A stretch of DNA of 64,000 nt, from the NCBI GenBank assembly GCA_032718475.1, contig JAUCBJ010008313.1, positions 124,001-188,000 of the forward strand. Reading direction: 5' to 3'. A program made the position numbers and the translations under genes. This document shows positions 4,079-50,793 of the stretch, piece by piece. Under the pieces are notes generated by a model. That model saw nothing but the letters and a program-made list of their open reading frames with translations, searched no databases and was not told where the DNA came from. The DNA comes from Nemertoderma westbladi (lineage: Eukaryota; Animalia; Xenacoelomorpha). Position 1 is the first letter of the stretch, and every line of letters begins with the position of its first letter.

Positions 4079-4639
4079 TGTGACGGGATCCGAGAGGATC
4101 CCGGTTTATCCGGTGTTGCTTATGTACGCGTCAAGGGCCGCACCGTTCGGTGGAAAAGATATAGGAGTTTTGCTTGTTCCGACGTTCTCTAATAATATAG
4201 GATAGATAAATATCTGATAGCACGAAATGAGATAACTGATGTACCGGTAGAATGTACTGAGTAAACTGGTGTGGCGATGACGGTCTAAATTGTCACCGTA
4301 CTACCGTGACTGTAGTGACAGACTGAGATAACTGAACAAATGATCACTGTACAGATAATATATACTGCACGGGTTGGCCTCATTGCATTACCCAGTCGGT
4401 GCCTTCCCCCCATTGGCTAATATCCCTGTTTGACACCCTTTGCCCCCCTCTGAAGTGCTTCCCTTTGCCCTTGCTATTCTCTCTCTGTCAGGGGAGTAAC
4501 CCCTGACCCCTATTGTGCGTATGTTTCTCCTTCCCACTTTGTTGGGGTGACACGAGTGGTTGATTACCCAACCTCGTGGCCCCCAATATTGCTTAACGGC
4601 TTACTTTGTGGGGTGTTAGCGGAATTGAATACGCTAACA
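4079..4639 (-). repeat. 5' LTR of BEL/Pao B (561 bp)
   Basis: Minus strand TGTTAGCG...CCCGTCACA; homologous to the solo LTR at 20617-21151. Confidence 0.9.
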
Positions 4640-4847: not shown

Positions 4848-5222
4848 ATGGATATTTTAAACGAAAAATGTCCAGTTTGCTATTCTAAGTTATTGCAACA
4901 TCGAGATTATTATAAATGTGAAAATAAACATGCAACTTGTGTGCGATGTATTGTACAATATTCCGAAATGAATAATTATTGTTCTAAAATTTGTCCTATT
5001 TGTCGTGCGCCCATATCTAAGTTAAATATAAAGTTGGCGAGATACAACCCCTATTATTGGAAAGAGCTACGAAATATAACTTATATTTCCGCGGAAAGTA
5101 ATGATCCAGGAGATTTATTTACAATATTGGAGAATATTTTTTATAGAAATGTAGTACGACGGAGTTGCTACTATGATGTTCCTTATTTTTACAACAGCGA
5201 ACATAAAAAATCATTAGCGTGA
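4848..5222 (+). CDS. RING-finger (C3HC4-type) protein, putative E3 ligase
   Basis: CPVC...CENKHATCVRC...CPICR spacing. Confidence 0.75.
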   Translation: MDILNEKCPVCYSKLLQHRDYYKCENKHATCVRCIVQYSEMNNYCSKICPICRAPISKLNIKLARYNPYYWKELRNITYISAESNDPGDLFTILENIFYRNVVRRSCYYDVPYFYNSEHKKSLA

Positions 5223-5513: not shown

Positions 5514-6185
5514 ATGGCTGACTTTAATTCAGGTCCATATAATTTAAACTTTCAAATGGGAACGAGTATGATAATTTCTGGCCCATCTGGTTCCGGAAAG
5601 TCAACATTTTGTTAGCAATTTAATTAAACACAAGAATGGTTGTTTCAACGAAGCGAGTATTGTATTGTTACGGGAGCAATCCCCCAACTATTCCTGGTAT
5701 TACTCACCTTTACAAAGGTTTGCCAGAAAATATAGATAGTTTAGTGAATAGTCGAGATTTATTAATTATAGATGATTTATTAACAGAAACTGAGTCCAGT
5801 ACAGCTTTAACTGTATTGTTTACTAAGGTAGCTCATCATTCCAATATATTTATTTGTTTTATAACGCAAAATGTTTTATGGTGGGAAGCATAACCGCACA
5901 AGATCAATTAATAGCCATACATTAGTATTAATGAAAAATCCGCGAGACAGTTTATCGGTTTTAAATTTCGCGAAGCAGATGTTACCAGGGCAGACCAAAT
6001 TTTTAGTAGATTCCTATCAAGATGCAACTATTGAACCATTTTCTCATTTCTTAATTGATTTACGACAGGAAACACCCGAACATTTAAGATTTAGATCGGA
6101 TATATTTCGTAATCATAATTGTTACATTAAAAATTACATTGACTATAAACGTAGCGAAAATAATAATAATAATAATAATAATTAA
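5514..6185 (+). pseudogene. Polinton A32/FtsK-like DNA packaging ATPase
   Basis: ATG 5514; Walker A GPSGSGKST, Walker B LLIIDDL, HHSNIFICFITQN, RSINSHTLVLMKNPRD; stop and frameshifts. Confidence 0.92.
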
Positions 6186-6218: not shown

Positions 6219-6602
6219 ATGAATAGACTTGTGCAGAAATATCGTAACGAATTGGAAATTCTACGCAGCGCTACCCCTCAACAAAGAACTTATTTTATTA
6301 ACCATACCGCGAGTAACAAATTAATACGACTCCTTGTAAATACCGCATTAAATGTTCTAAAAGGTAACGTACAATTGACCCCTCATTCATTTAGAAATAT
6401 TCGTCATTATAAAAAGGTATTAAAATCACTCAACCACAAAACAAAAAATATATCAAGTTACAGAAAAAAGTTAACCAATCAATCTAGAGGCATACTACCG
6501 TTTCTAATACCCTTACTCGGCATTGGTGCGAAACTCGCCGCGAGTGCTGGTGCCGCCGCCGCTGGAGCGGCTATTGCGAAAAAAATTAACCGCGGACGGT
6601 AA
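6219..6602 (+). CDS. Conserved Polinton small basic protein with C-terminal amphipathic tail
   Basis: ALNVLKGNVQLT...KKVLKSL...QSRGILPFLIPLLG pattern and position after the ATPase. Confidence 0.75.
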   Translation: MNRLVQKYRNELEILRSATPQQRTYFINHTASNKLIRLLVNTALNVLKGNVQLTPHSFRNIRHYKKVLKSLNHKTKNISSYRKKLTNQSRGILPFLIPLLGIGAKLAASAGAAAAGAAIAKKINRGR

Positions 6603-6823
6603 TAATGGTTAAAATGGGAGTAACATTTAGAAAATTATATTTAGTATCGAGTAAACCGTTAGCTACTGATTTAAAACCTCAAGATATACCTAGAGTAAAT
6701 ACTACAAAAAGAAAACCCTTTAAAACATCAACTTCGAAGAAAATAAAAAAATTTCAGCTGATTTTACGGTGATGCCCTTTATAAGAGATTTGAATATACA
6801 TATTACTTGCGGTTGTCGAAAAG

Positions 6824-7465
6824 ATGCCACGCAAGATGAGACCGATTTTAAACCGAAGCTTAGACAAAAAACTGTTAAGAATTTATTTAGATCCTTCATC
6901 GCCTGCGGGTTTTGCAAGTATCGCAAATTTAGCAAAAGCCGCAAACATCAAACCAGCTCAAGCCCAGAAATGGTTGAGCGGGCAAAAGACATACTCCCTT
7001 CAACAATTAGCCTATTATTTTGGAATTACTGAAAATAATCTCGGTGTGAATTTAAATCCAAATTTTAAAATTATTTTGAAGACGAAAAATAACATAAAGG
7101 GTTATTTAATAAAGATTATGGGAAATGAAGAAAAAGCTTACCAGATGGTATTTTTATGTCCTCAACCACCCAATTCTATTCCAGAACCTAAGTCGAACAT
7201 GTACGTGACTACTAATATAATTGAAAATGAATATATTAATGATTTTGGTTTAGCTTTACTTTGTCGCGTGGCGATACCTGATGACGTGAAATATGGTAGT
7301 GTAATAAATAAAGAATTTGCCAAGGATACAATTCATTATATCCCTGTAAAAAAATCATATAAGATAACATACATTCATATTGAAATAACAGACAAAGAAG
7401 GAAAAGATTTGAATTTTGAATACGGCACAACTTCTATTACCTTACACTTTAAAAAAATAAATTAA
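6824..7465 (+). pseudogene. In-frame chimera: Polinton integrase N-terminus fused to penton (minor capsid) C-terminus
   Basis: IYLDPSSPAGFASIANL...KWLSGQKTYSL (integrase start), then LAYYFG...MYVTTNII...YIPV...IHIEITDKEGKDLNFEYGTTSITLHFK (penton end); no DDE core. Confidence 0.8.
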
Positions 7466-7466
7466 A

Positions 7467-7871
7467 ATGGATTCCGATTTATTTCAAAGATACAGTAAAT
7501 CTCAATATGGTGGTGCAGACTCTAATCTTGCTGTTTTTAAAGGTGGTAGAAGTACGAGAGGCTCGACGCAAGTTCCTGTTTTTCGAGGTGGTTCATATAT
7601 TGACCCTTACGGTCAACAAATTGGTGCATTTGGTCCAAATTTAAAACAACGTCGATTTCAACGTTATCGTAGAGGTATGCGGGCAAATCAACACGGGGAA
7701 GGTATATTTACAGACGCTTTATCTACATTGAAAAAATTTGGAAAGCCATTAGCAAAAAAAGTTTTACAAAAAGCTTTACCATTTACCACAAAATTTATGA
7801 GACAACATGTAATACCAAAAGGTAAGCGGGTCTTACATCAGCAGGCTAATAATTTATTAATAAAGCATTAA
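7467..7871 (+). CDS. Polinton virion core / membrane-lytic-type protein
   Basis: YSKSQYGG...VFRGG...QHGEGIF followed by a basic amphipathic helix; lies between penton and major capsid. Confidence 0.7.
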   Translation: MDSDLFQRYSKSQYGGADSNLAVFKGGRSTRGSTQVPVFRGGSYIDPYGQQIGAFGPNLKQRRFQRYRRGMRANQHGEGIFTDALSTLKKFGKPLAKKVLQKALPFTTKFMRQHVIPKGKRVLHQQANNLLIKH

Positions 7872-8028: not shown

Positions 8029-9414
8029 ATATCAATTATTAAGGAATTAGATTTATTTTCTACACAGCCAATACAGACTGAATTTAAAGCAAAGCATTAT
8101 GAAACAATTTACCCGGTATCTAATCTCAGAAGCGAATCTAGGGAAGTCACGTTTCTTGTACCAAGATCCAATGAATTCTATACGAAACTGCAAGATGCGT
8201 TATTAATTACAAAATGTACTGTACAGTGGGATAGACGACTTGAAAACTCGCATATTTATATGTTGAATTACCCTTCTGGGACTATGTGGAGTGGTATTAA
8301 AATAGACCTTAATGAGAAGCAGGTTGAAAATAGCAATAACCATTATTTCTACAAGTCGTACTTATCCAATTTACTATTTACAACATACGAATCTAAAAAT
8401 GGGCTACTGGGGGCAGGCGGCTTTCGTCAGCCTTTATCCGAACACGGAAATGAAATTAATCCCGGCGCGCATCCTATTGGCGATGCCTTTAGTAAACAAA
8501 TGTAATTTGTAAGTGGATTGACGATTGATTTTGATACTGAAAGTAAAATAATACAACCTGGGTATGATTTAAGAATGCATTTTAGAAAAGTATCAAATTC
8601 GTTTATTTTTAAAATCACTCCAAACGCAAATGCTGTGACAAATCTTCGGCTAGAATTAGATGAAGTAAAGATCCTAATCCCTAGAATGGAGGTTAATCCA
8701 GTAATAGAAAGCAGTCACCTAAAAGGTTTAGAGAGTTACGATATTGAATATCAATTTCAAAAAAAGAAAAAGAAGTTACTACATTTACTATTCCCGTTCA
8801 AACCACAAATTACACCCAAACAAACATATTTGATGGTAAAAAACCCAAATTAGTTATTATCGGTTTTATAACAAATAATGCATATTCGGGAGAATTAACT
8901 AATAATCGAAACGTTTGCTTTTTTGGTAATATTATACTATGAAATTCAGGACACTAGCGCTGGTTTTTCTTTTCATTATTTATCTTCGCTTTCCCGCCTC
9001 GAAATCTACTAAGAATTAACTAGTAATCCCTTGAAATTTGAACATTTTAACCTTAGACGAGCTGAACTGATTGTAGACGGTCTTCCAGTAGGTGTTGTAA
9101 TATATGAGCCTAATTTTACAGATGGAACATACATTTTTGAGTATACACAATTAATGAAGAACATTAATACATATATTAACGGTTATGGAGGTAATAATAT
9201 AGACCATGAAACCTACTTAGGTAATTGCCCACTCATATCCTGGGACCAAACTGCCGACGGCTATGCTAGAGATCCTCAGCCATCGATATAAACTAACGGA
9301 CAATTAAAATTAAGATTTGCCGAACCATTGTTTGAGACCATAAATGTAATCGTTTTTAATATTTATGATCAATCATTAAGTTTAAATAGCAGGAAGGAAA
9401 TACATATCAATTAA
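8029..9414 (+). pseudogene. Polinton major capsid protein (double jelly-roll)
   Basis: ELDLFSTQPIQT...IYPVSNL, NNHYFYKSYLSNLL, AYSGELTNNPLKFEHFNL, LKLRFAEPL; stops, frameshift and a 104-bp insert; start codon not intact. Confidence 0.9.
8908..9011. mobile_element. 104-bp retroposition-type insert in the capsid gene
   Basis: Flanked by 17-bp direct repeat AGAATTAACTARTAATC (8891-8907, 9012-9028); removal restores ELTNNPLKFEH. Confidence 0.8.
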
Positions 9415-9416
9415 GT

Positions 9417-9869
9417 ATGTTATCTACAGAGGACCTTGATATGTTTCCAGTGGGTGGTCACTATTTGGGCACGTTTCCATCTAATAAATTACCTAAATTA
9501 GATTATAATAAGCGAAGAGACTATGGGTTAATAGTAAATACCGATAAAGAGCATCTGCCAGGTGTTCATTGGGTGGCTATATATATACGAGATAATGAAG
9601 CTGAATTATTTAATTAGTTTGGACCAAAATATCCAAACAGATGTATTGAAAAATGGCTTGAGAAAAATTCAGCAAGGTGGTGTACTACTCGCAAACAATT
9701 TCAAGACCCTAGAAGGACCACATGCGGGTTATACTGTCTTTATTACTTGGTAAATCGAATTCACACAAACTATCCAATGAGAGTGTTTACAAATAATGTG
9801 GAAATAAATGAAATAATATTATATAAATGGCTTGTTAATTATTATAAAATAAACCAACAAACGTTGTAA
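9417..9869 (+). pseudogene. Adenain-type cysteine maturation protease
   Basis: IVNTD...GVHWVAIY...FN*FG...QFQDPRRTTCGLYCLYYL; one internal stop. Confidence 0.92.
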
Positions 9870-9900: not shown

Positions 9901-11492
9901 ATGGATAATATTATTTTTGTCGATTTTCAATATTATAAGATAGACAATAAGGAATATCCGGTAGTATTTAAAGAATTTGCTATATTCGATTCTAATTACA
10001 CCAAAACTAATGTAAAGACGTTTTTAATTAAAGGTCCTCCTGATATTAAGTTATCAGCATTAGATAAAGCCCACGTAAACAATTTACGGGACATGACTTC
10101 ACATTTACCTTGGGATTACGGTGACATTTCGCAAGATGACTTTAAAAAGTACATGCTACTACTACTATGATCGGCATGCTGCATTGCAGCTGCATTTTTA
10201 AGAATGCTGTGCCGGCTTGTCAACAAAATTGCACCACCACAACTCCCTATCACCCATGACATTTGCTAGATCATCCGCATCTTTAAGGCCAGTGTCCTTT
10301 AAGATGCGTCTCAAGAAAGTCATGAGCTGTCCACCATGCTTATTCACTCCATGAGGCTGCCAAAGTACAAGATTATGCACTGGCTGGTCCTCACGGCGAA
10401 AGCAATGTCCTGCAAAGCGGAGGCGATTTTGTTCTAGTGTCAAGCTTGGGAGAACCAATGAGACACCTCCAATGTTATATAGTGTCTGGTTGGAGATGTG
10501 TGCATTGTACTTGACACAATGAACCCGGCGTAGCATTCTTGTGAATGTGCCATCCAGAGATTTGGTGTCCTCAGCAGTTAGAGCCCAGCATGGACTCCCG
10601 TAGAGGAGTACTGGAACTACTGCTGCTCTAAATAATCGGACCTTAAGTTTCCGATTAATTCTCGGTGACTTCCAAATCCTGGAAAGCCTATTCAAGGCTG
10701 CCCATGCCTTTCCCTTACGTATTCGAAGGTCCTCACCTGACTTCCGGATCCATGATCCCAGGTAACAGAAGTCGTCCACATGCTCAAGCATACCATGCTT
10801 TGAGCTTATGCTCATCCGATCAGAGACTTGCTGAGGACTTTCAAAGTTAACTGTCAGAATTTTGGTCTTTCTGGAGTTAATAAAAAGACCAACACTAGAA
10901 GCAGCATGTTCTAATGAGCTGAGGAGCCGTTGGGCTCCCTCTAATGATTCTGATAGTACTCCTAAGTCATCAGCAAAGTCTAGATCAGTTAGGTACTTGG
11001 CAGGATTTCCTCGACTTCTGGAGCCAGTAGGTGGAGTTATCATCACCCCATCATCATTATAATGATCTAAGGACATGCGTAGAACATAGTCAACCACAAT
11101 AATGAACAAGAATGGTGCAAGTGTGTCTCCTTAAAAAGTACATGAAGAGACATTTAAAATATAAAAAAAATATATATGTATTCGGGTTGATGAAGCTGGC
11201 AATATTAATTTCCGAACTTGATGTACTTGCTCCAAAATCAATGGAGAAATTGGAAATATATCAACGGTATTACAACTATTTAACCCCTTGCCCCTTCCAC
11301 GATCAATTTATTACTACAGTAGAAAATAAATGCGCTTACCACTTAAACACAAAGGATAACTGTCTGCGGTACTGCTCCGCAAAACGAGTCGGCGGGTTTG
11401 AATTGAAACGATTATTCGTGAGAAAGCGATTAACTGAGACTGATGATAAACAGAAAGAAATAACTGCGGTGGAAGATGTACTCGTACAGTAG
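9901..11492 (+). pseudogene. Polinton accessory gene, DEDD-exonuclease-like with Cys/His C-terminus, split by an RTE
   Basis: IFVDFQ...VFKEFAI...HLPWDYG...IYVFG..K...CAYH...CS; removing the RTE joins 9901-10155 to 11145-11492 in frame (DFKKYM|KRHLK). Confidence 0.7.
10156..11130 (-). mobile_element. 5'-truncated RTE-clade LINE (copy 1)
   Basis: RT C-terminal half (DLDFADD, FCYLGS, LLYG, RLRFAGH); (TAG)n tail; 14-bp TSD TTAAAAAGTACATG (10142-10155, 11131-11144). Confidence 0.95.
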
Positions 11493-12425
11493 GTTTACTC
11501 TAAGCATGTAATGTGATGGGATAATATAATTGTTTTAATGTCAATAACAATAATAAAAACATTAAAATCTGTTTTTTATATCTCAGTTTGACTAAAAGTG
11601 GGGGTGGGGGTGTAGGTTTACACTCTCAAACACACCGCAACTACCGGTAGCCGACTGTTGTATCTGAGTTTAACTACCAGTAGCTGACTTTACACATACA
11701 GACATATAACAGCAGCGGAATGGCTCCCTTCAGTCCTTCTAGACTGACAGCACCCACAGCGCTTTAGCATTACTTACTAGTAATAAAATTAAATTAACTC
11801 GACATGTGGTTCGTGAATGCGGCATTAGAGTGGCCCTCCTAATAATAGGTCTACTGGTACCGTCGCTGTAGCACTCTTGTAACTGTATACTTGGATACTG
11901 GTAGGGCACGCTGGTTTCTCCGATTTAAGGATTAGGCTATTACACTTGAATGCTTCCAATTTTATGTTTACAACTTTAATTGGTCTAATCTACATTATTA
12001 TTATTGCTGCGGGGGTACCGGTACTACTGTTGCATAGGTAAGCCTATACAGCTATAGTTAACTTTATGCGGCCCCCCTCTTTCGAATGTTGACCCAATAT
12101 GGTTTACGGTTAACCTTTAGAACTCGCGGATAGGCACACCTTCAATCGGTTAGGCATATAGGCCTAATGACTACTCCTCAACTGAAAGCCGGCTAGCTCA
12201 TTGATACAATAGGTGTGGCTAGCAATATATAAAATTCACCGCTCACAAGTTCATTCATTCACTCCATGTTGTAGGCCTATATAAAACATAGTTAGTTTAT
12301 TTATGTATTCGCTTTTTTAATTAGATATAAAATATACAATACAATACAAAAACCTACTGATACCGGTAACACATTAACACTGAACCAAACAGACGTGACT
12401 AATTATATACCTACGAGTCTACTTG

Positions 12426-12776
12426 CTACTGGTGTATTCTTGGATCTGTCGGAAGTAGTAGAGTCGGAGCAGGAGCTACTGATATTTCTTCTTGTTCTTC
12501 CCAGTGCTCACCCCTACTATAATTATCCAGACTTATCTGGTGAGCTTCTCCTGGTTGGACCCGAATGTTTAAATTAAAGTTTTTATTTGTTGACAATGTA
12601 GTTTGTCGACCTTCGCCGCTCGTTTTATTCTTAACCATTATACTAATCTCACCATTGTTATTTTTCAAATGTAATTCTGTTACATTTAATGATGTGAAAA
12701 AGAGTTCTTCCCCATCGAGATCAAATTTTAGTAAACAGTCGCTGCTATCTCTATTTTCAATAAATGAAAACGCCAT
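12426..12776 (-). CDS. Hypothetical Polinton protein
   Basis: ATG-initiated 116-aa ORF in the minus-strand gene block, AT-rich flanks, no motif recognised. Confidence 0.45.
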   Translation of the reverse strand: MAFSFIENRDSSDCLLKFDLDGEELFFTSLNVTELHLKNNNGEISIMVKNKTSGEGRQTTLSTNKNFNLNIRVQPGEAHQISLDNYSRGEHWEEQEEISVAPAPTLLLPTDPRIHQ

Positions 12777-13372
12777 GTTGAATGTTGGATGTTGGTTGAT
12801 TGATTGATTGATTGATTAAATGAAAGATCGCCGGAACTGAAGTTTGGAGGTTAGTTTTTTTTTCAAGTATGAATATAAGTTGGTCTATACCGGTATTTTA
12901 TTTTTTTTATTTACGGTAACAAAATTATACTTGAGATAGAAAAAATTGAGTTTATATATATTTTTGTAGTGGGTCGCAGATGTTTACATTACAAAATTCA
13001 CATAGTTAACAAAATGCCGAACATAAACCTTTCCCATGCGGATTAGCAATATATGCTCTGTTCTTTGTTCTATTCTGAATGTAGGGAAATGCATAGCTGA
13101 TGTTTTAATAATATGTACTGGTATATAGGCTAGTAACAGATAGGAGGGCTTCGACTTTGACTATGAATACCAGTACATAGCCCTAAACTTTTCTCACCGA
13201 GCTTAGCGTTGCCTGCTGCACACACACACACTCGCACACACTCACTCTCATAAGTAACAGATGCGCTACTGTAGCTCACTCGAGAGCTGCGATGCTTAGC
13301 TAGCTAGCTAGCTAGCTACTGTCTCTGGGTATACTATGCATACTTGTGAGTTACAAGCAATCGCTCTACCGA

Positions 13373-13413
<41 letters not shown>

Positions 13414-13564
13414 ATTTCCCCAACTAGTTGTTGATTTAAAAAATATTCATAAATTTCTTCTCCCTCCAATTTAATATATATATATATATATCGGTATATA
13501 TTTTACAGTAAAAAATCTCCACCACCAAACAACAACAATAAATTTCACTCTCTCTAATTATATT

Positions 13565-14134
13565 TTACATCAAAAACCCACCACCAAACAATAATAAATT
13601 ATTAACCAGTTTGTTGAATATAGGATAATATATATGAAATTTAAACAGAGAACACATTAATGTACATTTACCAGTGTAGAAGCAGCAAACAACAACAATA
13701 TTATTTATTCTGACTTTACAGTTATTGAATATTTCGGGGTCGTATGAAATTTCTAGTTTAACATTATCAAATATAACATAAAACCCGATATTGTTTATAA
13801 GTAACCTATAGATTACGGTGTCGATACTAAAAATATAAGTACACAAATTGATAGATTTAAAAATCAAATTAATGTTTGTTTTTTCGAATATATGCTTTTT
13901 CACTTTATTAAAATTATATTTTCTACTGAGAATTGTTATTCGTCCATTTGTAAACATTAATATGGTTGCACCAAATACCTTATATATAAACTGATTAGGT
14001 TTGAGTACAATTTTACCTGTCAATTTATTTTTTAATTCTTTTAAATTAAGTCCATAACTGATCTGCTTACAACTTATATTTTTATTTACTATTTGATAAT
14101 TCATCATCAACATCATCGCCTTTTGGTTCTTCAT
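13565..14134 (-). CDS. Divergent TATA-binding-protein-like protein
   Basis: Two TBP half-repeats: QIVNKNISC...ATILMFTNGRITIL and INLCTYIF...SYDPEIF...VVCCFYTGKCTL; likely start M at 14104 overlaps the polB end. Confidence 0.75.
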   Translation of the reverse strand: MKNQKAMMLMMNYQIVNKNISCKQISYGLNLKELKNKLTGKIVLKPNQFIYKVFGATILMFTNGRITILSRKYNFNKVKKHIFEKTNINLIFKSINLCTYIFSIDTVIYRLLINNIGFYVIFDNVKLEISYDPEIFNNCKVRINNIVVVCCFYTGKCTLMCSLFKFHIYYPIFNKLVNNLLLFGGGFLM

Positions 14135-17100
14135 AAATTGGTATATTTGATATTTTTATAGGTTTTTTGAGGTTTGTTTTATAGTGCCCCCAAGGAAGTG
14201 ATTGATTTTTATTAACCCAATAAAGTTTATCATCAAAGCTACTGAGTGCAAATTTATTTTGCTTTAAGGTATAAAAACGATGTAATTTAGATTGAAATCT
14301 GTGTATGTTTTTTTTTTATTTCTTCATTTGAGTTATATGCTTTTAAATATTCTTCATGTGTAATATTCGTTTCCACAACAGCTCTTGTAATACCTTTTGC
14401 TCTACAAATATTTTTGTTATTCCATTCCAAAATTGAATATAATTTTGGTCTTAAAAATACAGCTTGTTTAATTTCACGTGAGGCTAGTTCATCTTTACAG
14501 TAATAAAGTCTAGATTTATTTTTATTACTATAAAGCGGGTGATCCTTAGGGTAATTGGATGTATCTAAAATATTATTTTTAATTAATGCTTTTAAAAAAT
14601 TATTCTGCGATGTATTATATGTAACAACCTATTAATGAGTCTGTATCTGATGCAGCAATTTCAATACGGCAGTTTAATTCTTTCTCAATAGGTAGCAATT
14701 TATCGTAGTACAGCTCATACATATCCAGTTTAGCCGAATCCAACACTGTGCTACCAATAAATATAGGCTTATCGAGAGTTACAGTGTCTTTCACTAATAA
14801 ATGTCCCGATAATGTATTATTGTATATTATAAATTGTTCATGATTAATACGATTCACCAATTGGTCACATTTATCATTGCTATTTGCGATATGAAAGTTA
14901 CATCGATCCCGTATCTTTTCTATTGACTTACCAAATAAAGAGTTATTAAGCAACTTTGCGACAGCTGTTTCAATGTAACTTTTTGCTAGTAGCCTTTGAT
15001 TAATATTAAAATCTATGTAATTTTTAAATACAAATTCTTGTTGAAAAGAATATAATTTATGTAGTTTAGTAACAATTAATCCATGTTTTATATAAAATTT
15101 TAACAGTTTCAAATGTAAATGATAAAATTCTTTATCAAATTGCGTCAGCAAGAGTTTTGGTGTAGGCATCTTATATTTACTGGAGGTACCTCTTTGGATC
15201 GATAAGTTATTAAATTGTTCCCTCATATAAGGTGAAAGCATTGATTCATTTATACTTAAATGCTCTGGGGCTAACGGTAATTGTAATGTTTGATCGTGAA
15301 TAGCTTTGGGGTAATTTAAATCACATATTAAAAAATATCCAGTAGATCCGTCATTGTCTAAATCTACCAAGTAATTAGTTTTTCTGGAATTGCATTCTCT
15401 AAATGTTTAATACTTACTTCTTTGAATTGTGAGGTGGGTAGTCTTTTACTTAAATTCCCAGAATATAAAGAGTTGAAATCAATATTAAAAATATGGCATT
15501 CTTCCTTAAAGTAGAATCATATGTACTTGTTTCGGGTATATTTGATTCTATATAATGCTTTCGACAAAATGAAACACCACCCCTAATTGATTTTTCAAAA
15601 TCTCTATATGTCTGATAATCCTTTATTAATTCTATTTTACATTTATTATATTTTAGTGCGCAATCATAGGTAAATGACGCAATACTACAGTAAAAAACCA
15701 CTTCTAAATCGTAATTTTGTTTACAAACATTCCTAAAATTCTCAAATATATCAGCAAGCAAACAAACATCGAGTTTTAAATAGGCTAAAAGATAATCTTT
15801 GAGATTCACACAGACGAATTCTACCCATGATAATCCCGCAAACCTATAATCTTCAATTGTGCATGTTTTTTGACTTAAGTTACTAAAAAAATTATTTATA
15901 GATGGTAAACCAGTATCATTAAATTTATTTATATCTGTCAAGTACTCGTATGGAAATACTCCTTTCTGATTAATTGTTGAGTTATTCAAGTTTGGATAAA
16001 AATATTTCATTTCTTGTAGAGTAATAGGTAAAATTGAGCTTATATCATGACTCGCTACATCCTTTGTTACTAAATTACTTAAAGAAAAGCTTAAAAATTG
16101 ATATGTGTCTAAGACACGTAACTCAATTTTTTTAGAAGTGTTTTTAATTGGGATAAATGCACTCAGTGAAATATATCGTTCTGTATTTCTCGGTTATAAC
16201 CTTTATATCCCAATCCGTGTATTTCTTATCTCTAAATCCGGTTTGTAATATACAATGTATATCATAATTATTGGAATTGTGCCCGCAAAGTTCATACAGG
16301 TATCGTTTCAATGATAAACTTCGGTTACAACTATTACAGGCTGCCGCAATATATTTACCTGTAATATGTGAATGATGTCTGTTTTTCCCTACATTATTAT
16401 TTAAAGTAGCATTACAATAGAAACAAAATTTTGCCTGTTCAAAATTTACAAAATCAATATTAGTAAATAACATAGTTTTATGAGTGTATATTTCTGACCA
16501 ACAACATAATTCAGTTAAATCAGTATATAATGAATCTAAGAAATCTTGAATACAATTATTATTATTTGACTTTACAAATGTTTTCAAATGACATTTTGGA
16601 GGATCAATTAATTCACTATTGGGAACAATTAAATAACTCACAGCACACGGTATATGCTCCTGTACAAATTGATTATTAACTGAAGGTTGTAAGATACATT
16701 CTATATCAAAGTAGGTGACAAACAATGGGGATAAGGTTCTATAAAAATTTGTAAAACTAATGTGTGTTCTTTTTTTATTAGGTAGTTTCTCTCGTTGACT
16801 TCTTCCTTGGTAGCAGACGAGACGGTGTCGATGAAGAACTTCCGCTCGAAAAAAGTGTCCCAAACACCTTTCACAATATTTCCTATTGTGGATATGAAGA
16901 GCTCTCGTATTCAGCAATCGATTCAAGTTAGTTATGCAAACATAATGATTCAGTTTAGGTACATTGTTATTTTTTACTACAAGTAATATATTTAATAACT
17001 CTTTATCAGGTGTAATTTTACTAAACGGTGGTTGTCTTAATATACATACGGGGGTGCGTTTGTTGTCGTTATTCAAACATAGTAAATTAATTATATATTT

Positions 17101-17403
17101 AGAATTTTGTTTTTCAAAAAGTTTAATCGCTAACTGCCACTCTGTTGGATAATCATTTTTCCCGTTGTCAAAAATGAAATGACTCATATAATTTTTGTAC
17201 GACGAAGTATGGTTTTTGTTGTTTTTCACTTTGCTAGCAAATTTTGCGGTTATAATAGCCCATTTGAAACAGTCATTATCAACCGTTTGTATATTTATTG
17301 TACATTTTTTAGCTGATAGAGCCTTAGGTAATTCCATATATCCATGCCCCTTATATAGTAACGACCTACACTTAGATTCAGCTAATTTAATTTCAACCCT
17401 TAA

Positions 17404-18960
17404 CCCTATTAAACCCGGGGTGGGGGGGTCAATATGACCCCCCCCGTGGTTTTTTTATTATAATTCTGAAACAAAAGCAGTTGGGAATCTGAAATTTTAG
17501 GACTTTTCCTAAAAATCTATTGTCTTTCTAGTAGTGAAAACCGTTTTCAAAAATATTGGGTACTTTTCGAGTTATAGCACCATTTTTTAACCGTACTTTT
17601 GGCACTTTTTTTGAGACGTTTTTTGAAAATTACATTTCATTAAATATGAATTGTAACATCTCTATTTTTGATTTACACCGGTTTTTTGGTGTTAGAAATT
17701 TGATGGAATTCATATAAATTGATTTAGAAATTTCAAACTTGTTTTTTTTGGTGGGTGCCAAATTTTGGTGCCAGCACCAAATTTTGAAATAAGTCAATTT
17801 TGTAAATTGATCGTTTGAAACTTGTTTTCTACGCAATTGGGGTTTTTTGGGTTTCTGGATTCGATGAAATATATACGAGTTGCACCAAACGTATCAAACT
17901 AGTATTTTTCGGTGCTGTGTGCAAATTTTGGTGCTAGCACGAAATTTTGAAAATCCAGTCAATAGATAAAATTGCTTGTGACAATTTATTTCTTGCGTTT
18001 TAGAGGTTTATGGCTGTTCTGAATTCAATGGAAAATATAATTATCGAACTAGACATCTCAAACTTGTATTTTTCGGATGTGGGTGCAAAATGTGGTGCTA
18101 GCACCAAATTTTGAAAACCATCAAATATATCAATTGATTGTGTCACCTTGTTTCTTGCGTTATACGGGTTTGTGATGGTTCTGAATTCAATGGAATCAGT
18201 AAAAATTTCATAAGAGTTCTCAAACTTGTATTTTTCGCTGGTGGGTGAAAATTGTTGTGCCAGCACCAAATTTTGGAAAATATGCAAATTGATAAGTAGA
18301 TAGTATCACCTTGTATCTTGCGTTATACGGGTTTATGAGGGTCCTGAATCCGATGGAATCAATAAAAACAGCACTGGACATCGCAAACTTGTACTTTTTG
18401 GTGATGGGTACGAAATTTGGTGCTAGCACCAAAATTTGCCAAATTACGCCGAAAAATACAAGTAGCAACGATCTGGCATATTAGAAATGTATTCCATTGG
18501 AATCAGCGCCCTCGAAAACCTGAAAATGTGAGTTTATAGCATCGTATAAGTGAATTAAAAATTTTGTGTTCTAACTGAAAAGTGCTGGTTACTTGTTTTT
18601 TTCATTTTTTTCCTACGCAGAGAGGACTAAACAGCCATTTATAGTAATCATATCATTTTTTAATATTTTCCAATGTATTTTGCACCCCAGAAAACCTGTA
18701 TTGAAAAATAATTAGCCGAAAATGTAACTTTCAAATTTGGTGAAAATTGTGCACTACTTGTAATTTTGGTGCTGCAATATAACCACCCCAGTACATTTTT
18801 TCGAAAATTTTTTTTTTCGGTCGGATCCAGACAAGTGATACCTACGTACAAACAAAAAATAGGACGTTTTCGTAAATATTTGTAGATTTTAGAGGGGGGG
18901 GGTCAATATGACCCCCCCCCCGGTATTTGTACAACATTTTATAGCCCGGTACTAATAGGG
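17404..18960. mobile_element. Non-autonomous piggyBac-like element with internal ~163-bp tandem array (copy 1)
   Basis: TTAA|CCCTATTA...TAATAGGG|TTAA; subterminal GGGGTCAATATGACCCC palindromes; inverted copy at 40147-41716. Confidence 0.9.
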
Positions 18961-18964
18961 TTAA

Positions 18965-20125
18965 GGGGGGGGGTAGCGCATTTTCTGACCAAAAAGTCGA
19001 ATTTTTGAAACATATCCTATCTGATGCAGAATTTCATGCTGAATCTAAATATGGAAACCGTTTTCCTATGTCTTGCTTACTTTTCGAGATATCTGGGATA
19101 GAAGAGACTGGCTCCGATATATCGCGATATTGGTAAGGCGATAAAGTTTGGGGTTTGCATTCAATTTCTGCAAATTTCTGTGCTCAGTGGTGCTAATTGG
19201 ATGTCTCCACGAGAAAGAGCACAAAATTTTAATTGAGAAGGTATTTTTTTATGATTATTGGACCTACTGATCAGTTTATAAGACAACTTCATGTCTACAG
19301 AATGAAGACGGGACTTGAATAAGCGACTCTGCGGTCTTTGCGGGATTATACGGAATAGACTTATCGGTCATCGGAGATCTTCAAAATGTATAATCTCCAG
19401 TTCTAGTGGTCGTACGGAGTTCGTTTAGGGCTCATTCGAAAGCTCTTTTCTCAGAGACCAAAGTTACCATTTGGTTTGGCAAACTCTTGAAAGCTGCCGG
19501 AGCAATCATAACTTGAACAAAATTTGCAAGGCATATTTTACCAAAATTCATGTTATGTTGCTTTAGAACCATTTTGTCTTAAATCAAATGGTAACTTTGT
19601 TCTCTAAGAAAAGAGCTTTCGAATGAGCCTAAAACGAACTTCGTACGACCACTAGAACTGGAGATTATACATTTTGAAGATCTCCGATGACCGATAAGTC
19701 TATTCCGTGTAATCCCGCAAAGACCGCAGAGTCGCTTATTTGAGTCCCGTCTTCATTCCGGAGACTTGAAGTTGTCTTATAAACTGATCAGTAGGTCCAA
19801 TAATCATAAAAAAATACTTTCTAAAAAATTAATAAAAAAAAAATATTTAAAATTTTGTGCTCTTTCTCGTGGAGACATCCAATTGGCACCAATGGGCACA
19901 GAAATTTGCAGAAATTGAATGCAAACCCCAAACTTCATCGCCTTACCGATATCGCGATATATCAGAGCCAGTATCTTCTATGCCAGATATCTCGAAAAAT
20001 AAGCAAGATATGGGAAAACGGTTTCCATATTTGGATTCAGCATGAAATTCTGCATCAGATAGGATATGTTTCAAAAATTCGTCTTTTTGGTCAGAAAATG
20101 CGCTACCCCCCCCCCCCCCCCCCCC
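18965..20125. mobile_element. Non-autonomous foldback DNA transposon, Kolobok-like
   Basis: TTAA TSD, G-run termini (GGGG..TAGCGCA / TGCGCTA..CCCC), ~510-bp inverted arms around a ~110-bp spacer. Confidence 0.85.
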
Positions 20126-20616
20126 TTAATAAAGATTTAACGCGCCATCCTGAGCCACGTGTGTTAAAGATGGCTATTTTTTGTAATATATTTTCCACCA
20201 CATACTCAAACCATGTGTCAAAACTTTGTGATGAATCTACAGTATTAATAGTACCACCGGAAGAATTAAAATAAAAGGTTTCCAATTGCTCGTCTTCTGA
20301 AAAATGTGATCTGTACATTAATACATTTAGACCTAACCACAGTCTAAGAACATTCATTTCTTTCAATCTATCTAATATTAACTGAAGAATATTACCTCGA
20401 ATTTGCGTTAATGCTGTTTCTACATCGGGATAATCTCTAGAAGTTGGGAGGTCGTGGACATAAATTTCAAGACGATTATCGTGAGCTTCTTGTTCCCGCG
20501 TAAAAATTGTTGCGCATGTACCAAGAGCCACCCTTAAGTTTTTTCTTGATAATATATTTTTATGTTGGGGAGATTTACGCTTTCTTGTGTAATAACATTT
20601 CAAGTGACTGTCGTGT

Positions 20617-21151
20617 TGTGACGGGATCCAGGAAGGATCCCGATTTATCCGGTTGTTTAATTCACTCGACCCCGCCGTGTGTATGAAAGGTAAAAGGGAA
20701 TCCGTGTCGTTCGTTGTATATAATAACTGATATAGATATAGGGTATATAGATAATGTTGTCGTATACAGAAGGCGGGATACGGTAATTAAAGTCCCGGTC
20801 CTTCCCTAGCTAAACTAACTAACCTAAACTAGCACCAATATTACACTGAGATAACTGGACTGATATGATTACTGCCAAGTGGCTATATTGCACGGTTGGC
20901 CTTGTTACTCTACCTAACCGATGCCTTTCCCCCCTCTGATTGGTTGATACCCTTGTTGGCGCCCTTTGGAGTGTTCCCGTTCACTCCACCTGTTCTCTCT
21001 GGGTTAGGGGTTTGGCCCCTGACCCTCATTGTGTGTTTCCTTCCCATTTTGTTGGGGTGGCACGAGTTGGTTGATTACCCAATCTCGTGGCTCCCAATAT
21101 TGCTTATCGGCTTAACTTTATGGGGTGTTAGCGGGATTGAATAAGCTAACA
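20617..21151 (-). mobile_element. BEL/Pao solo LTR related to the element B LTR
   Basis: TG...CA, 5-bp TSD CGTGT on both sides; removal restores ENYLRH|DSHLKCYY in polB. Confidence 0.95.
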
Positions 21152-21594
21152 CGTGTCTTAAATAATTCTCATATGTATACTCTTTATTACAGGTAGAACA
21201 AGTCAATTGATAGGTACGGAACTCCATTTCTTTACAACCAGTAGTTGATTCATGTCGTTTACAAATTTCTCTGCATGAAGTCACGACATGACACTTAAAA
21301 CAAGAATAACCTTCAAAATGTGACCGTAGGTGGCGTAAATAATTATGTCTAGTTACATTCATATGACAGAATGAACAACATTTTGTTATTTTATCCATGT
21401 TAAAGTTTGTTTAGATTAATAATAATAATAATAATAATATATCACCAAAGATTAAAATAAAATGAAATGAAATGAAATGAAATGTTATTGACTATATCTA
21501 AACATTTATATGCTAGCGAGTGAAATAATTTTAAATCAATCACCAATCGCTTATGGGTATTGGAAACCTCAAAGAGTTTAACTTATGATCAGGT

Positions 21595-22653
21595 TTACAT
21601 TTTAGAATAATAATCTGGTTTCCATGGAGAATTAGTAACTGGATCTACTGGAACTAGGTTACAGGCAACTTTCTTTGCAGGTGATGCGTTGGTAAATTTA
21701 CTCGATGATCTTGGCTTCCGAGGTAATATTTCAGGAAAGACCTGTTGCGGTTGAGAGCAACTCTCTTCAACATCCGGATTAGGTGATGGGATCTCTACGA
21801 ATGCTTTAGGTTTATCCAAAAGGACAAAACCATCTACATTGGCTTCAGTAAGAGAAACACCATCCATAGCCTCTTTGAGAAAACTAATATGGGCTTTATC
21901 CTTCAAGTAATGCAACTCAATAGAATTTCCACCTGCTCCTACTTCAGTAGAATTATCGGTGTTGGTGATAATAATTTTTTTATTATTGGTTTTAATCATT
22001 TTGAGACGGTCTGATAATTGAATGATATTTTTATCAAAAAGATGCTTGTCTGTTTCATCGATTTGGGTGTCCCACTCTCGCAACAAAACGGTTAGTTCCT
22101 GATTTGACAAATTGAAACCCGTATAATAGTTAAAACCAACACTATCAGCGTATCTGAGGCTGATTTTCCATAAGCCAACATAGTTGGTTCCTTTAAAAGC
22201 TGTTACAAATCCAATAAACTCTGGATTTGATAATTCAATGTAGAATTGATCGCTAATAATCTCTAGCGGTGGAGAGAGAAATTGCAATAATTTCCCTCTG
22301 TATTGAATTAGAACTTCAGTAAAAGCTTTGTTGAGAACTTTACATTTGCCTTGTTTCTGAACGTAAACATCACCCGACGTGGGGTTGATAGAAATATTCA
22401 AATTTCCTTGCACAAAACGAAGAGCAGCATATATCCTACCTGGTATAATTGCTGGTCTGGATTGATGTTGGTTGTTGTTGGTTGTTTCTAGAATGTCTAG
22501 CAAATAGCGGGTATCTTGATGGGAAAAACAAATTAATTCGTTGTCCTCCTGAGATTCCACAATAAAATACTTGTTGTGAACGACGGTACAAGTATATTTA
22601 TTGTAAGTAAATTTCCAGCTATTTGTTGCTCCAGTTTTTTGCGTTAAGGCCAT
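21595..22653 (-). CDS. Polinton 352-aa protein with PC4/Sub1-like segment (candidate ssDNA-binding protein)
   Basis: Intact ATG ORF upstream of polB; FVTAFKGTNYVGLWK...TGFNLSNQELTVL resembles the PC4 pattern V.V..FKG..YVDIR...KGI.L...QW..L. Confidence 0.55.
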   Translation of the reverse strand: MALTQKTGATNSWKFTYNKYTCTVVHNKYFIVESQEDNELICFSHQDTRYLLDILETTNNNQHQSRPAIIPGRIYAALRFVQGNLNISINPTSGDVYVQKQGKCKVLNKAFTEVLIQYRGKLLQFLSPPLEIISDQFYIELSNPEFIGFVTAFKGTNYVGLWKISLRYADSVGFNYYTGFNLSNQELTVLLREWDTQIDETDKHLFDKNIIQLSDRLKMIKTNNKKIIITNTDNSTEVGAGGNSIELHYLKDKAHISFLKEAMDGVSLTEANVDGFVLLDKPKAFVEIPSPNPDVEESCSQPQQVFPEILPRKPRSSSKFTNASPAKKVACNLVPVDPVTNSPWKPDYYSKM

Positions 22654-22707: not shown

Positions 22708-23004
22708 GTAATAAATTGACACCATAGTTCTCACTCTAAAGTTGTGATGGTCGGAAAACAACACCTGAGAAAAATGATACTGATTCCGACATTGGGTATC
22801 GATCAAAAAACGAAAATTGAGCAAGACACTTAGCCCGATTTTCGTTTTTTGATGGATACCCAATGTCGGAATCAGTATCATTTTATGAGGTGTTGTTTTC
22901 CGACCAACGAATATACAACGAGTAAGATAATGAAGAAATTATTAAGGAAATAACACAATTTCAGAGTGAGAACAAAAAAATTAGATATGGTATCAATATA
23001 TTAC
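22708..23004. repeat. Long inverted repeat / hairpin
   Basis: Inner arms 22748-22822 and 22833-22906 nearly perfect; outer arms 22708-22746 and 22955-23004. Confidence 0.9.
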
Positions 23005-39852: not shown

Positions 39853-40146
39853 TCAATAACAGATATATACGTACAATCAGAAAATATAGTTGTCTATTGT
39901 TCTGGTAAGAACAATAACAGATATTGATTTCAGATTGCAGTGTAGGCAATAAAATGCAGTTTAATATTGTTCTGGTAAGAACAATAACAGATATTGCTTC
40001 TTTATTGCAACGTAGGCAATAAAGCTGAAGTACCGGTCAACCGGTACCCAGTAGGCCTGACTACCTAACCACCTGGACTGGTACTTACAGCAGTACAGGT
40101 ACAGCAGTATTATTCGATTGTGATATTGTATACCGGTAGGCCTTAA

Positions 40147-41716
40147 CCCTATTAGTACCGGGCTATAAAATGTTGTACAAATACCGGGAGGGGGTCATAT
40201 TGACCCCCCCCCCCCCCCCTCTAAAATCTACAAATATTTACGAAAACGTCTGATTTTTTGTTTGTACGTAGGTATCCGACCGGATCGGTATCTGGATCCG
40301 ACCGAAAAAAAAAATTTTCGAAAAAATGTACTGGGGTGGTTATATTGCAGCACCAAAATTACAAGTAGTGCACAATTTTCACAAAATTTGAAAGTTACAT
40401 TTTCGGCTATTTATTTTTCAATACAGGTTTTCTGGGGTGCAAAATACATTTGGAAAATATTTAAAAATGATATGATCACTATAAATGGTTGTTTAGTCCT
40501 CTCTGCGTAGGAAAAAAATGAAAAAATCAAGTAACCAGCACTTTTCAGTTAGAACACAAAATTTTTAATTCACTTATACGATGCTATAAATTCACATTTT
40601 CAGGTTTTCGAGGGCGCTGATTCTAATGGAATACATTTCTAATATGCCAGATCATTGCTACTTGTATTTTTCGGCGTAATTTTCAAATTTTGGTGCTAGC
40701 ACCAAATTTCGTACTCATCACCAAAAAGTACAAGTTTGCGATGTCCAGTGCTGTTTTTATTGATTCCATCGGATTCAGGACCCTCATAAACCCGTATAAC
40801 GCAAGAAACAAGGTGATACTATCTACTTATCAATTTGCATATTTTCCAAAATTTGGTGCTGGCACAACAATTTTCACCCACCGGCGAAAAATACAAGTTT
40901 GAGAACTCTTATGAAATTTTTACTGATTTCATTGAATTCAGAACCATCACAAACCCGTATAACGCAAGAAACAAGGTGACACAATCAATTGATATATTTG
41001 ATGGTTTTCAAAATTTGGTGCTAGCATCACATTTTGCACCCACATCCGAAAAATACAAGTTTGAGATGTCTAGTTCGATAATTATATTTTCCATTGAATT
41101 CAGAACAGCCATAAACCTCTTAAAACGCAAGAAATAAATTGTCACAAGCAATTTTGTATATTGAATGGATTTTCAAAATTTCGTGCTGGCACCAAAATTT
41201 GCACACAGCACCGAAAAATACAAGTTTGATACGCTTGGTGCAACTCGTATATATTTCATCGAATCCAGAACCCCAAAAAACCCCAATTGCGTAAAAAACA
41301 AGTTTCAAACAATCAATTTACAAAATTGACTTATTTCAAAATTTGGTGCTGGCACCAAAATTTGGCACCCATCGAAAAAAACAAGTTTGAAATTTCTAAA
41401 TCAATTTATTTGAATTCCATCCAATTTCTAACACCAAAAAACCGGTGTAAATCAAAAATAGAGATGTTACAATTCATATTTAATGAAATGTAATTTTCAA
41501 AAAACGTCTCAAAAAAAGTGCCAAAAGTAGGGTTAAAAAATGGTGCTATAACTCGAAAAGTACCCAATATTTTTGAAAACGGTTTTCACTACCATGAAGA
41601 CAATAGATTTTTAGGAAAAGTCATAAAATTTCAGATTCCCAACTGCGTTTGTTTCAGAATTATAATAAAAAAACCACGGGATGGGTCATATTGACCCCCC
41701 CCCGGGTTTAATAGGG
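40147..41716. mobile_element. Non-autonomous piggyBac-like element (copy 2, inverted relative to copy 1)
   Basis: TTAA|CCCTATTA...TAATAGGG|TTAA; reverse complement of 17404-18960. Confidence 0.92.
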
Positions 41717-43277: not shown

Positions 43278-46200
43278 ATGTACCAATTACGCCAGTATCT
43301 AGTCAATAATCCAAACGAACTAAAATTTATTCATATTAACGCTTTAAGTCACGTGAAACACTACAATGATATTAAAGACCTTCTTCAAACTGACCCCAAA
43401 ATAACGACTAACACAATAATCAGTATATCGGAAACTTGGTTGAAACGCCACATAGCATCAAAATCAATACAATTATCAGGTTACAACATTGAAAGGCAGG
43501 ATAGGAGAAAGAAGAAAGGGGGAGGTGTCTTATTTTACATACCTAGTGGCATTAAATACAATACAAGGGGGGATATTAAATTAGGGAACAATAGCACTAC
43601 AACGAATAATAATAAAAGCAATACAAGCAATTATAAGAAAGAAAATAAAAAATATGACTCATTGTGGATCAATATAGGCGATACTCTAGTAGGTGTATTC
43701 TACATACCACCACATGCTAATAATATTTGGGATGACCTGACCGAGGAAATGGAGAATGCTACCAATGCATCTCAAAATGTCCTTCTAATGGGTGATTTCA
43801 ATGTTAATATTCAATCCACATATGACCCCCAATCAAAAAATAACTCTGCATATTATAAAAACAAGCAATTCCTGGAAATACTAACGACATACAACTTACA
43901 AATCCTAAATACCGAGCACCCCACTAGATATAAAGCAAAAACCAGCTCTCTTATAGACATGTTCATAACCACCTCAAATAATACAGATAACTATATTGAA
44001 TGCAATACATTTCCGGCTGACTTTTCCGATCACGAATTTATAGTACTGAAATCCAAACAAGTAATTTCACAACCACCACAAAACACGAAACCAGTATATT
44101 CTACAGTTAAATTCCGCGATCTATCACATTTCAATGAATCTGATTTTCTTAATGAAATTAGTAAAATTGACTGGACGAATAATTATTTTACAAGCAATGT
44201 AGATTACGTTTATGACAACTTCGAAAATAAATTAAATGAAATATATGATAAGCATGCACCAATTAAAACTAAATGCATACGATCTAGCAATAATATCAAA
44301 AGCAACTTGCACAACATATCACTATGGTGGAACTCAGAACTATCATCCCTAAATATTGAAAAACAGCAAAAATTAATCAGGTGGAGACATTCAAAAAGTG
44401 AAAGTGACTTTGCAGACTATAAAACAATTCGAAATAAATTTAACTCACTAAATAAAAACCTAAAGAATAAATATATAAAATCAAAACTAAATGATGCAAC
44501 TGCAATAAAAGACAAATGGGCAATATTAAATAAAATCACTAATAATAATAAAAAAACCGAGCAAACTATATCGTCCTTAATTAATCACGCAACAGGCTCT
44601 ATTATTTATAACATATTACCAATGGCGAACCTACTTAATGACACATATCTAAATCTGGGTAACTTTCAAAGCACTGGCTATATAAAAAGACATTGTACTG
44701 TTCACTCTAGTTTCAGCTTTAAGAACGTAACCGAATTAGAAATATTTGAAATAATATCTAAAATAAACACAAATAAACCAACTGGTCCGTCAATATTAAG
44801 TCCAAAATTAATAAAACTAATTGCACCGTATATTACCATACCACTAACTCACATCACAAACTTATGCCTAACGTCAAGCACTTTTCCTTCTCGGCTAAAA
44901 TCAACCTTTATTACTCCTGTATTCAAAAAAGGGTCTCGAGATGAACCATCTAATTATAGACCTATTTCTGTCACATCAACATTCGAAAAAATAATTGAAA
45001 CAGTCATATATCACCAAATTACAAAATATCTACACAACAATAAAATACTACAAAGTAAGCAATTTGGTTTCAGAAAAGGGTATTCTACAGCAGACGCCGT
45101 TTTATTTGCAACCGAGTCTTGGAAACGCGAACTTAACGAAAAAAAATATATTGCTATTGGAGTACTAGATCTCTCTAAAGCTTTCAACTCCCTCCAGCAC
45201 GACATTCTCCTAGATAAATTAATAGAAATTGGATTCCAATCGAATGCTGTTGCACTTATTAAAAGTTATCTTCTCGACCGCCCGCAAGCTGTAAAATTAA
45301 GCAAAATGTTCTCAGACTGGAAAATTTGCAATAGGGGTATACCACAGGGCACCAAACTTGGACCATTATTGTTTTTAATATATGTCAATGACTTTGCAAA
45401 TCAAATAAATTTGGAAACAATCCAATATGCCGATGACACTCTTATATATTGCTCGCACCCAAATGCACATACTGCAGTAAAACAACTAAACAATCAAATC
45501 ACATATATTAGCCAGCTATTCGCAACACTAGGTATGAAATTAAACTCAAATAAAACAGAACTTCTTGTTATATCCCCATTAAAGAGAACAGACGAATTAA
45601 ATAATCTACATCTTGTGCTTAATAATGACATAATTAAACAATCAACCACAATTAAATATTTAGGCATCATCATAGATAACAGATTATCATGGAAGGACCA
45701 AATAAAAACTACTACATCTAAAATGGCAGCGGCCACATCCACAATACGCCAAATAAAAGGACAATTGCCAATCTCTACGAAATTAATGTTATACAAAGCT
45801 CTAGTCATGCCGTACCATAACTACTGTAGTATCTTAACAGCGACATATAATAATACTCACGGATATAAGGAACTACTGTACAAAATGGATAAGATTCAAA
45901 ATTACGCACTTAGGCTAATCTATAACAAAAAAATACGAGAAACTTCAGGAACAGAACTAAGACAATTAGCTAGGATCCCGCACCTTAACGCACTGAGAGA
46001 ATACCACGCAATACAATATTTCTATAAATACATGTTCAACATTATCCCAGCATTTAAATCATTAAAACTCCCGTTCATCAATCAAATATCACTATCTAAT
46101 AGGCAAATAAATCCACGAACTAAAAAAATAAAAGTTCCAAAAACAACAAACAGATTTGGTCACAACTCTTTTATTGTCACATGCATAAAATCATGGAACA

Positions 46201-50300: not shown

Positions 50301-50793
50301 AAAGGTAATACCAGTGTGTTATACAGACGACGGCGGAAGCCAGGCTTCTCAAGAGGAAGACAGCGGGAAAGACACTGAAAGATCTTACTATGACAACAAA
50401 ACGCCTAAAGAACAGGTAAGTAAATTCAAGTCTCGAACCAATGACAGGAGAGAACAGGTAAGAAAAACTCCTTCTACGTCTCGTAAGAGAATTCAGTTAA
50501 GAAAGCCCGAAGAAAGAACGAGTGTGCACAATGTTACTCAAAATAAGGTAAGTAACATTAAACCGAAATGTGCGATATGTGACGGGACCCACCGTTTGAA
50601 TGTGTGCGACGAATTCCTAAAGAAATCATTAATGGATAGACGGGAAGTCATGTGGGATAAGCGGTTGTGTTATAATTGCCTCAGACAAGGACACCAACGG
50701 CGAACCTGTTACTCCGACGCAAGGTGTGCAAAGTGCGGTGCGAAACATCATATCTTGTTGCACACTGAATTCGAGCGAAATTCAGTGATGTGA
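47362..50793 (+). pseudogene. gag: BEL/Pao C gag (long N-terminus with Ala/Glu repeat; DUF1759 core; three knuckles)
   Basis: KFNGD...KLRFLIECLEG...RYG; CAICDGTH..C, CYNCLRQGH..C, CAKCGAKHHILLH; split at 49629/49657. Confidence 0.92.

Follow-up and report, generated by a model that had tools for sequence, protein, structure and literature searches.

A TATA-binding protein homologue carried by one clade of animal Polintons and its possible role as a late-promoter factor

A decayed Polinton of Nemertoderma westbladi carries what sequence and modelled fold identify as an intact two-repeat homologue of the TATA-binding protein (TBP), encoded on the reverse strand at 13565 to 14134 of the window, the 64,000-nucleotide stretch of contig JAUCBJ010008313.1 that was analyzed. 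Few known proteins are as conserved as TBP, and the question that its presence here addresses is the timing of capsid genes in Polintons, which carry no RNA polymerase. By sequence comparison, the gene was inherited within one polB clade of Polintons, with no capture from a host, and in TBP-bearing relatives nonstandard boxes precede the virion genes, one box per TBP subclade. Because particle-building genes of these relatives lie behind lineage-specific TATA-like boxes, the TBP is likely the element's own late-gene switch, and we lean toward the view that the window protein acts as an element-borne promoter recognition factor for particle-building genes.

13565 to 14134, reverse strand: TBP-like gene, intact (Pfam PF00352, HHalign, fold model and fold searches, selection among sister copies)

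The original prediction described an intact ORF of about 180 amino acids that likely starts at 14104 and overlaps the end of polB, and these points hold, as do both of the half-repeats it quoted, which are found in the translation. From its first ATG the ORF (14134 to 13565) encodes 189 amino acids, and from the ATG at 14104 it encodes 179, within a stop-free run of 196 codons; none of 1,000 shuffles reached 179, the shuffle maximum being 126. ATGs at 14134, 14116, 14113, 14107, and 14104 are candidate starts, and the likely start is 14107 or 14104, where homology begins. The C-terminal polB frame stops at 14082, so the ATG at 14104 overlaps polB by 23 nucleotides, and since this last frame matches the C termini of related polymerases (tblastn), the overlap is real. 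The arrangement is specific to the window's lineage, the TBP gene being more distant from polB in the 13 relatives and on the opposite strand in two of them. GC content is 24.9% in the TBP-like ORF versus 29.0% in polB.

Several lines of comparison bear out the predicted TBP fold. Taken alone, the window protein passes the curated cutoff of PF00352 (24.1 bits versus 22.9, E = 3.3e-5, in two stretches), which makes it a member of that family, and it reaches 88.8% in HHalign against a profile of 12 TBPs, archaeal-like and eukaryote-like, from viral contigs. The profile of the Polinton family matches a cell-like TBP profile at 99.5% (HHalign, E = 8e-23) and the TBPs of the PDB at E = 7e-29. A model of the window protein built with 117 sequences, and thus steered by the alignment of TBP-like homologues, is predicted to be a two-repeat AlphaFold saddle (pLDDT 83); the single-sequence fold was uninformative (pLDDT 33). 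Foldseek with this model gave E = 5e-7, and among the matches listed at an E of 0.001 or less all were TBPs. In a further structural comparison (VIA), 162 to 166 residues aligned with TBPs at Z up to 13.4 and an rmsd of 4.2 to 4.9, and the best non-TBP fold had a Z of 7.8. When the single window sequence was searched against 5,278 ORFs with phmmer, the nine best nonself matches were all Polinton TBP-like ORFs. Single-sequence searches of large libraries returned 0 of 103 candidates, 0 among 1.84 billion representatives, and none in IMG/VR, and no TBP turned up among PDB sequences even with E allowed as high as 1. When IMG/VR was scanned with the family alignment, 24 matches came out, of which none was confirmed because confirmation relied on the divergent window protein.

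The ORF is also present in sister copies, as had been anticipated, and among them it is under purifying selection. Counts were made on 40 of 45 differences, taking rows picked by support and changes singly, with neighbors within one codon left uncombined. The 38 differences outside the polB overlap comprise 20 silent changes, 18 residue changes, and no stops, against a silent expectation of 19 to 26%, and third codon positions account for 23 of the 38 (P = 5e-4). Listed indels are single-base insertions only, all within the last six codons.

The surrounding element spans about 4.8 to 23 kb of the window. Its plus strand encodes a RING ORF, an ATPase, an integrase-penton fusion, a core-like ORF, a capsid protein, and a protease, and its minus strand encodes polB and the TBP. 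All of the Polinton/adintovirus set (protein-primed polB, ATPase, capsid proteins, protease, and integrase) was detected, mostly broken or partial; nearly all hallmark genes are broken, and the TBP gene is intact.

4848 to 5222, forward strand: RING-finger ORF near the element's left end (several RING matches below cutoff)
5514 to 6185, forward strand: packaging ATPase, frameshifted (tblastn with relatives' ATPases, E = 3e-26; Walker A visible)
6219 to 6602, forward strand: intact ORF, presumably PZ-like (no Pfam match)
6824 to 7465, forward strand: integrase N terminus (up to 7012) fused to a penton C terminus (penton-like from 6998), with an internal deletion (tblastn)
7467 to 7871, forward strand: intact basic ORF, core-protein-like by resemblance
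8030 to 9411, forward strand: major capsid protein, several breaks (tblastn, E = 7e-30)
9411 to 9869, forward strand: cysteine protease, stop-interrupted (tblastn, E = 4e-17; weak PF00770)
9901 to 11492, forward strand: nuclease-like ORF, labeled by resemblance, split by a reverse transcriptase (RT) retroelement piece at 10156-11132
14082 to 17421, reverse strand: main body of protein-primed polB (PF03175 and EndoVII-like matches below cutoff; 91 polB homologues; tblastn frames)
20103 to 21398, reverse strand: probable N-terminal part of polB, zinc fingers followed by a GSGW-containing region (ORFs, weak C2H2 matches)
21595 to 22653, reverse strand: intact 352-aa ORF upstream of polB (no Pfam or PDB match)

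Frameshifts interrupt polB near 14310, 14620, 15410-15450, and 16190, and an insertion at 17422-20114 separates its body from the N-terminal part, which we assign to polB partly by motif; a loose contig end at 17403 continues with letters resembling those near 20131. A repeat breaks up the N-terminal part in turn (20845-21151), and its second copy, 76% identical, lies at the element's left edge (4322-4639). Inverted arms of about 1.5 kb, possibly PiggyBac-like, lie at 17422-18966 and 40141-41701 and contain internal 163-nt repeats, and a smaller inverted pair at 18965-20114 represents further transposon ends inserted in polB. Within the window, no inverted pair brackets the element as terminal repeats would, and its ends abut other repeats. 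A near-perfect hairpin of 160 nt lies at 22748-22906, just upstream of the last ORF and near the probable right end. That last ORF (21595-22653) had seemed by eye to contain motifs that we presumed to be PC4-like, a label that drew no support from Pfam or PDB sequences. The converging gene blocks are separated by about 2 kb (11500-13560) that is gene-poor and contains microsatellites; it includes a 116-aa ORF at 12426-12776 on the reverse strand and has a contig depth far below that of its neighbors, which is no guide to gene ranking. No RNA polymerase subunit was seen in the element. The element family is high-copy, with 5,582, 1,863, and 154 contig pieces on 12000-17450 in three DNA runs from three studies, one of which may be the window's own source, and the polB-TBP junction is covered by a contig of 650 nt that comes from another study.

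As direct searches with the single sequence came back empty, relatives were sought through polB. TBP-like ORFs were present at 13 of 110 polB-related loci (E = 8e-19 to 2.5e-8), and a profile of these 13 retrieved 116 further proteins, seen without genomic context, of which 112 match PF00352. Of the 110 loci, 102 entered a quick polB tree (8 were left out as their match was too short). The window groups there with all 13 TBP-bearing loci in a single clade (SH-aLRT 93) and is its deepest branch. Where at least 3 kb follows polB, a TBP was found at 9 of 10 loci inside this clade and at 0 of 24 outside it, counts made on partial loci in which more divergent TBPs may have been overlooked. A TBP tree of 39 rows, in which the only eukaryote-like TBPs were two and animal TBPs were absent, places the window protein inside the Polinton group (100/98). 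Its pairing with subclade A (97/98) is less sure, since its branch is very long (3.18) and its composition odd. TBP subclades A and B track polB subclades, and both the TBP and the polB of the window group with TBP-bearing Polintons, which we define here as the Polinton TBP clade. A polB-linked TBP is therefore not a one-off gene, and the nesting within this clade, together with the contig across the polB-TBP junction, upholds the earlier assignment of the gene to the element.

In clade B (L107:2105-3467, L102:7095-8399, L109, L113, L114, L134, and L120), the TBP gene overlaps an upstream ORF in another frame by hundreds of bases, and the space between polB and TBP contains one or two small ORFs that drew no Pfam match. 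At L020:869-2566 and L045:2584-4281, a 566-aa viral-contig protein joins an N-terminal TBP-like repeat to a long unexplained extension.

An unbiased k-mer count upstream of the relatives' genes yielded two boxes, the same loci serving for both discovery and counting. In six clade A loci, YATAAAC stands before 26 of 51 genes, against 2.4 expected, and it stands before none of the 55 clade B genes. TTAAGC occurs upstream of 17 of the 55 genes in the seven clade B loci, against 1.6 expected, and upstream of 2 of the 51 in clade A; L114 and L120 have no box in the counted window. Several loci are near relatives, and in a nonredundant subset the counts are 23 of 45 genes in clade A and 9 of 38 in clade B. 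Neither box is enriched at 50 loci without a detected TBP, loci with fewer than four ORFs being excluded (YATAAAC, 7 of 400 genes; TTAAGC, 5 of 400). At those 50 loci the ordinary TATAWAW precedes 117 of 400 genes (55 expected, an excess due partly to AT bias); it is not enriched in clade A or clade B. By rough motif-based labels, 19 of 20 genes for virion, packaging, and integrase proteins in clade A lie behind a box, and 10 of 22 in clade B. A box was found before 0 of 6 TBP genes in clade A and 0 of 5 in clade B (0 of 11 together) and before 1 of 9 polB genes. Most boxes lie 33 to 58 nt ahead of the ATG.

These patterns are consistent with a one-protein late-promoter factor working on host RNA polymerase II, an analogue of the herpesvirus late system. 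The TBP would be made early, as the lack of a box before TBP genes suggests, and would bind a variant TATA-like box about 30 to 60 nt upstream of the ATPase, integrase, penton, and capsid start codons. It would bend DNA with three of the usual four phenylalanines and bring in host TFIIB and polymerase II through its retained acidic second stirrup. A wider reading is plausible, although we hold it more tentatively: that one animal Polinton clade has a minimal private transcription code, in which a mini-TBP and a variant TATA box changed together (YATAAAC or TTAAGC), and that the window element is a third deep lineage with its own box.

Positions were related to yeast TBP by numbers that we presume to be equivalent. 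The first asparagine, three phenylalanines, and an acidic second stirrup are retained across the family, and the first stirrup is shortened. Proline takes the place of the first DNA-bending phenylalanine in the window protein and in 112 of 116 relatives. The second stirrup reads D-x-E in the window protein and E-x-E in relatives, each of its two acidic positions being E in 112 of 116, and is predicted to preserve the TFIIB contact. Cellular TBP has four phenylalanines, and its acidic residues, including E188 of yeast, contact TFIIB, according to excerpts of PMC12529657. Compared with the cellular TBPs of PF00352 (yeast, human, and archaeal structures), the window model has the same two-repeat saddle across its full length (Z = 13.4), but at 16 to 19% identity and an rmsd of 4 to 5 Å, with a shortened first stirrup, the first phenylalanine and second asparagine replaced, and no N-terminal tail.

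Evidence from the window's own element is less favorable, and the lack of a firm box there is the main gap in the case, although the box of a third lineage could well differ from the other two. Seven motifs were sought in three distance windows before the eight virion-side starts, some of them uncertain in this decayed copy: YATAAAC was found at 1 of 8, TTAAGC at 0 of 8, and TATAWAW at 0 of 8 (1.8 expected). TAAGA precedes 3 of 8 starts (P = 0.026, uncorrected, for one of seven motifs with inconsistent spacing) and lies within 140 nt of 4. In an unbiased 7-mer search, 34 of 60 random sets scored at least as well as the element's own starts. GCGAAAA, present before three starts, failed multiple testing.

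6780 to 6786, forward strand: weak candidate box TATAAGA, 44 nt before the integrase start (not significant in the unbiased search)
7358: second weak candidate box, 109 nt before the core gene

The original prediction of a late-promoter factor thus finds its support in the boxes before the relatives' virion genes; before the element's own capsid-side genes, apart from the weak TAAGA signal, the proposed motif search came out at chance.

One account of this result, which we consider unlikely, is that the TBP of the window's lineage lost promoter specificity and took another role, such as binding the AT-rich DNA of the element in replication or packaging, with a promoter role only in clades A and B. 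It would explain why neither box is enriched in the window element, why five residues that are 95 to 100% invariant across the family are missing on a branch of length 3.18 (one of the five losses is not common to sister copies, and the remaining four have no listed variant), and why the gene is nonetheless under purifying selection. Against it, the window protein retains the first asparagine, three phenylalanines, both G-K/R turns, and the acidic stirrup, and with just eight testable starts in a decayed copy a box could be overlooked, the ordinary TATAWAW being likewise missing from all eight.

The decoy that had been offered as an alternative, a protein that sequesters host TFIIB, NC2, or Mot1 or acts as a competitor of host TBP and so damps host transcription, now appears improbable. 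A TBP fold that retains its acidic stirrup while its first phenylalanine has become proline would suit such a role, but a decoy leaves unexplained why subclade-specific boxes stand before virion genes and not before TBP.

Equally doubtful is the idea that some host factor, or a different protein of the element, reads the relatives' boxes, or that these are signals for 3' ends, with the link to TBP reflecting shared ancestry only. TBP clade, polB clade, and box follow one tree, so that just two independent TBP-box pairings are available, and a large share of the boxes (12 of 29 and 10 of 17) fall close to where the preceding gene ends. However, in clade A a box occurs at 10 of 26 isolated starts (100 nt) versus 6 of 26 isolated ends (210 nt), and distances cluster before the ATG; in clade B the same test is weak (3 of 16 versus 2 of 20). 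An origin of the ORF as a piece of host TBP, or as an open frame by chance, might be suggested by the lack of direct single-sequence homologues in large libraries but is refuted by the shuffles, the selection, the nesting in the Polinton TBP clade, and the junction-spanning contig of another study.

A promoter recognition factor encoded by the element would have partial parallels in known viruses. Many giant viruses encode their own RNA polymerase. The TBP-like proteins of giant viruses and mirusviruses, seen as BFVD matches and in excerpts of PMC10132985, resemble the window protein in placing a TBP fold in a eukaryotic DNA virus but belong to far larger viruses and share 10 to 18% identity with it. 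A functional parallel is KSHV ORF24, the vTBP of the beta- and gammaherpesviruses, which in excerpts of PMC12529657 is described as a viral TBP that uses a variant TATA box (TATTWAA) before late structural genes on host polymerase II; for Polintons, the corresponding box is seen in relatives. ORF24 is large, belongs to a complex of six members, has four phenylalanines, and lacks the acidic TFIIB residues of the stirrup, whereas the Polinton protein is a bare core of about 175 amino acids with three phenylalanines and the stirrup. In keeping with this, the window protein (179 to 189 aa) consists of the TBP core and lacks the polymerase II-binding and C-terminal domains of the herpesvirus vTBPs (ORF24, BcRF1, and UL87). 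Among midsize linear double-stranded DNA viruses, MELD viruses with an adintovirus-like PolB, the polB type of the window element, carry a TBP label in the Fig. 5 legend of Starrett et al. 2021 (PMC8502044); the excerpted text gives this as a legend label only, with no clade, box, or mechanism, unlike the present analysis, and one supplement of that paper contains no TBP or TATA text. Apart from that legend, a literature search that took in neither subscription papers, figures, nor some supplements found no paper on a Polinton TBP clade or box. New here are the link of TBP to a polB clade and a second box.

If the wider reading is true, these elements would have the smallest known viral early-to-late switch on host polymerase II and would offer a set of TBPs whose DNA specificity has been altered in nature. 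The combination of a TBP throughout the clade and a separate box in each subclade is directly testable with protein and short DNA, and natural variants that possibly read other boxes with three phenylalanines could inform how TATA specificity is rewired. The boxes also mark candidate virion genes by promoter, and a staged program would support the view that Polintons behave as viruses. The window copy adds a branch that is deep, strongly eroded, and yet under selection, but other members would suit such experiments better.

Beyond the element, the window contains other mobile sequences. An endonuclease-RT ORF at 43278-46301 is apparently intact, and a Pao/BEL-type gene set at 47362-59408 is largely intact, with long ORFs at 47362 and 57102 that have no Pfam matches.
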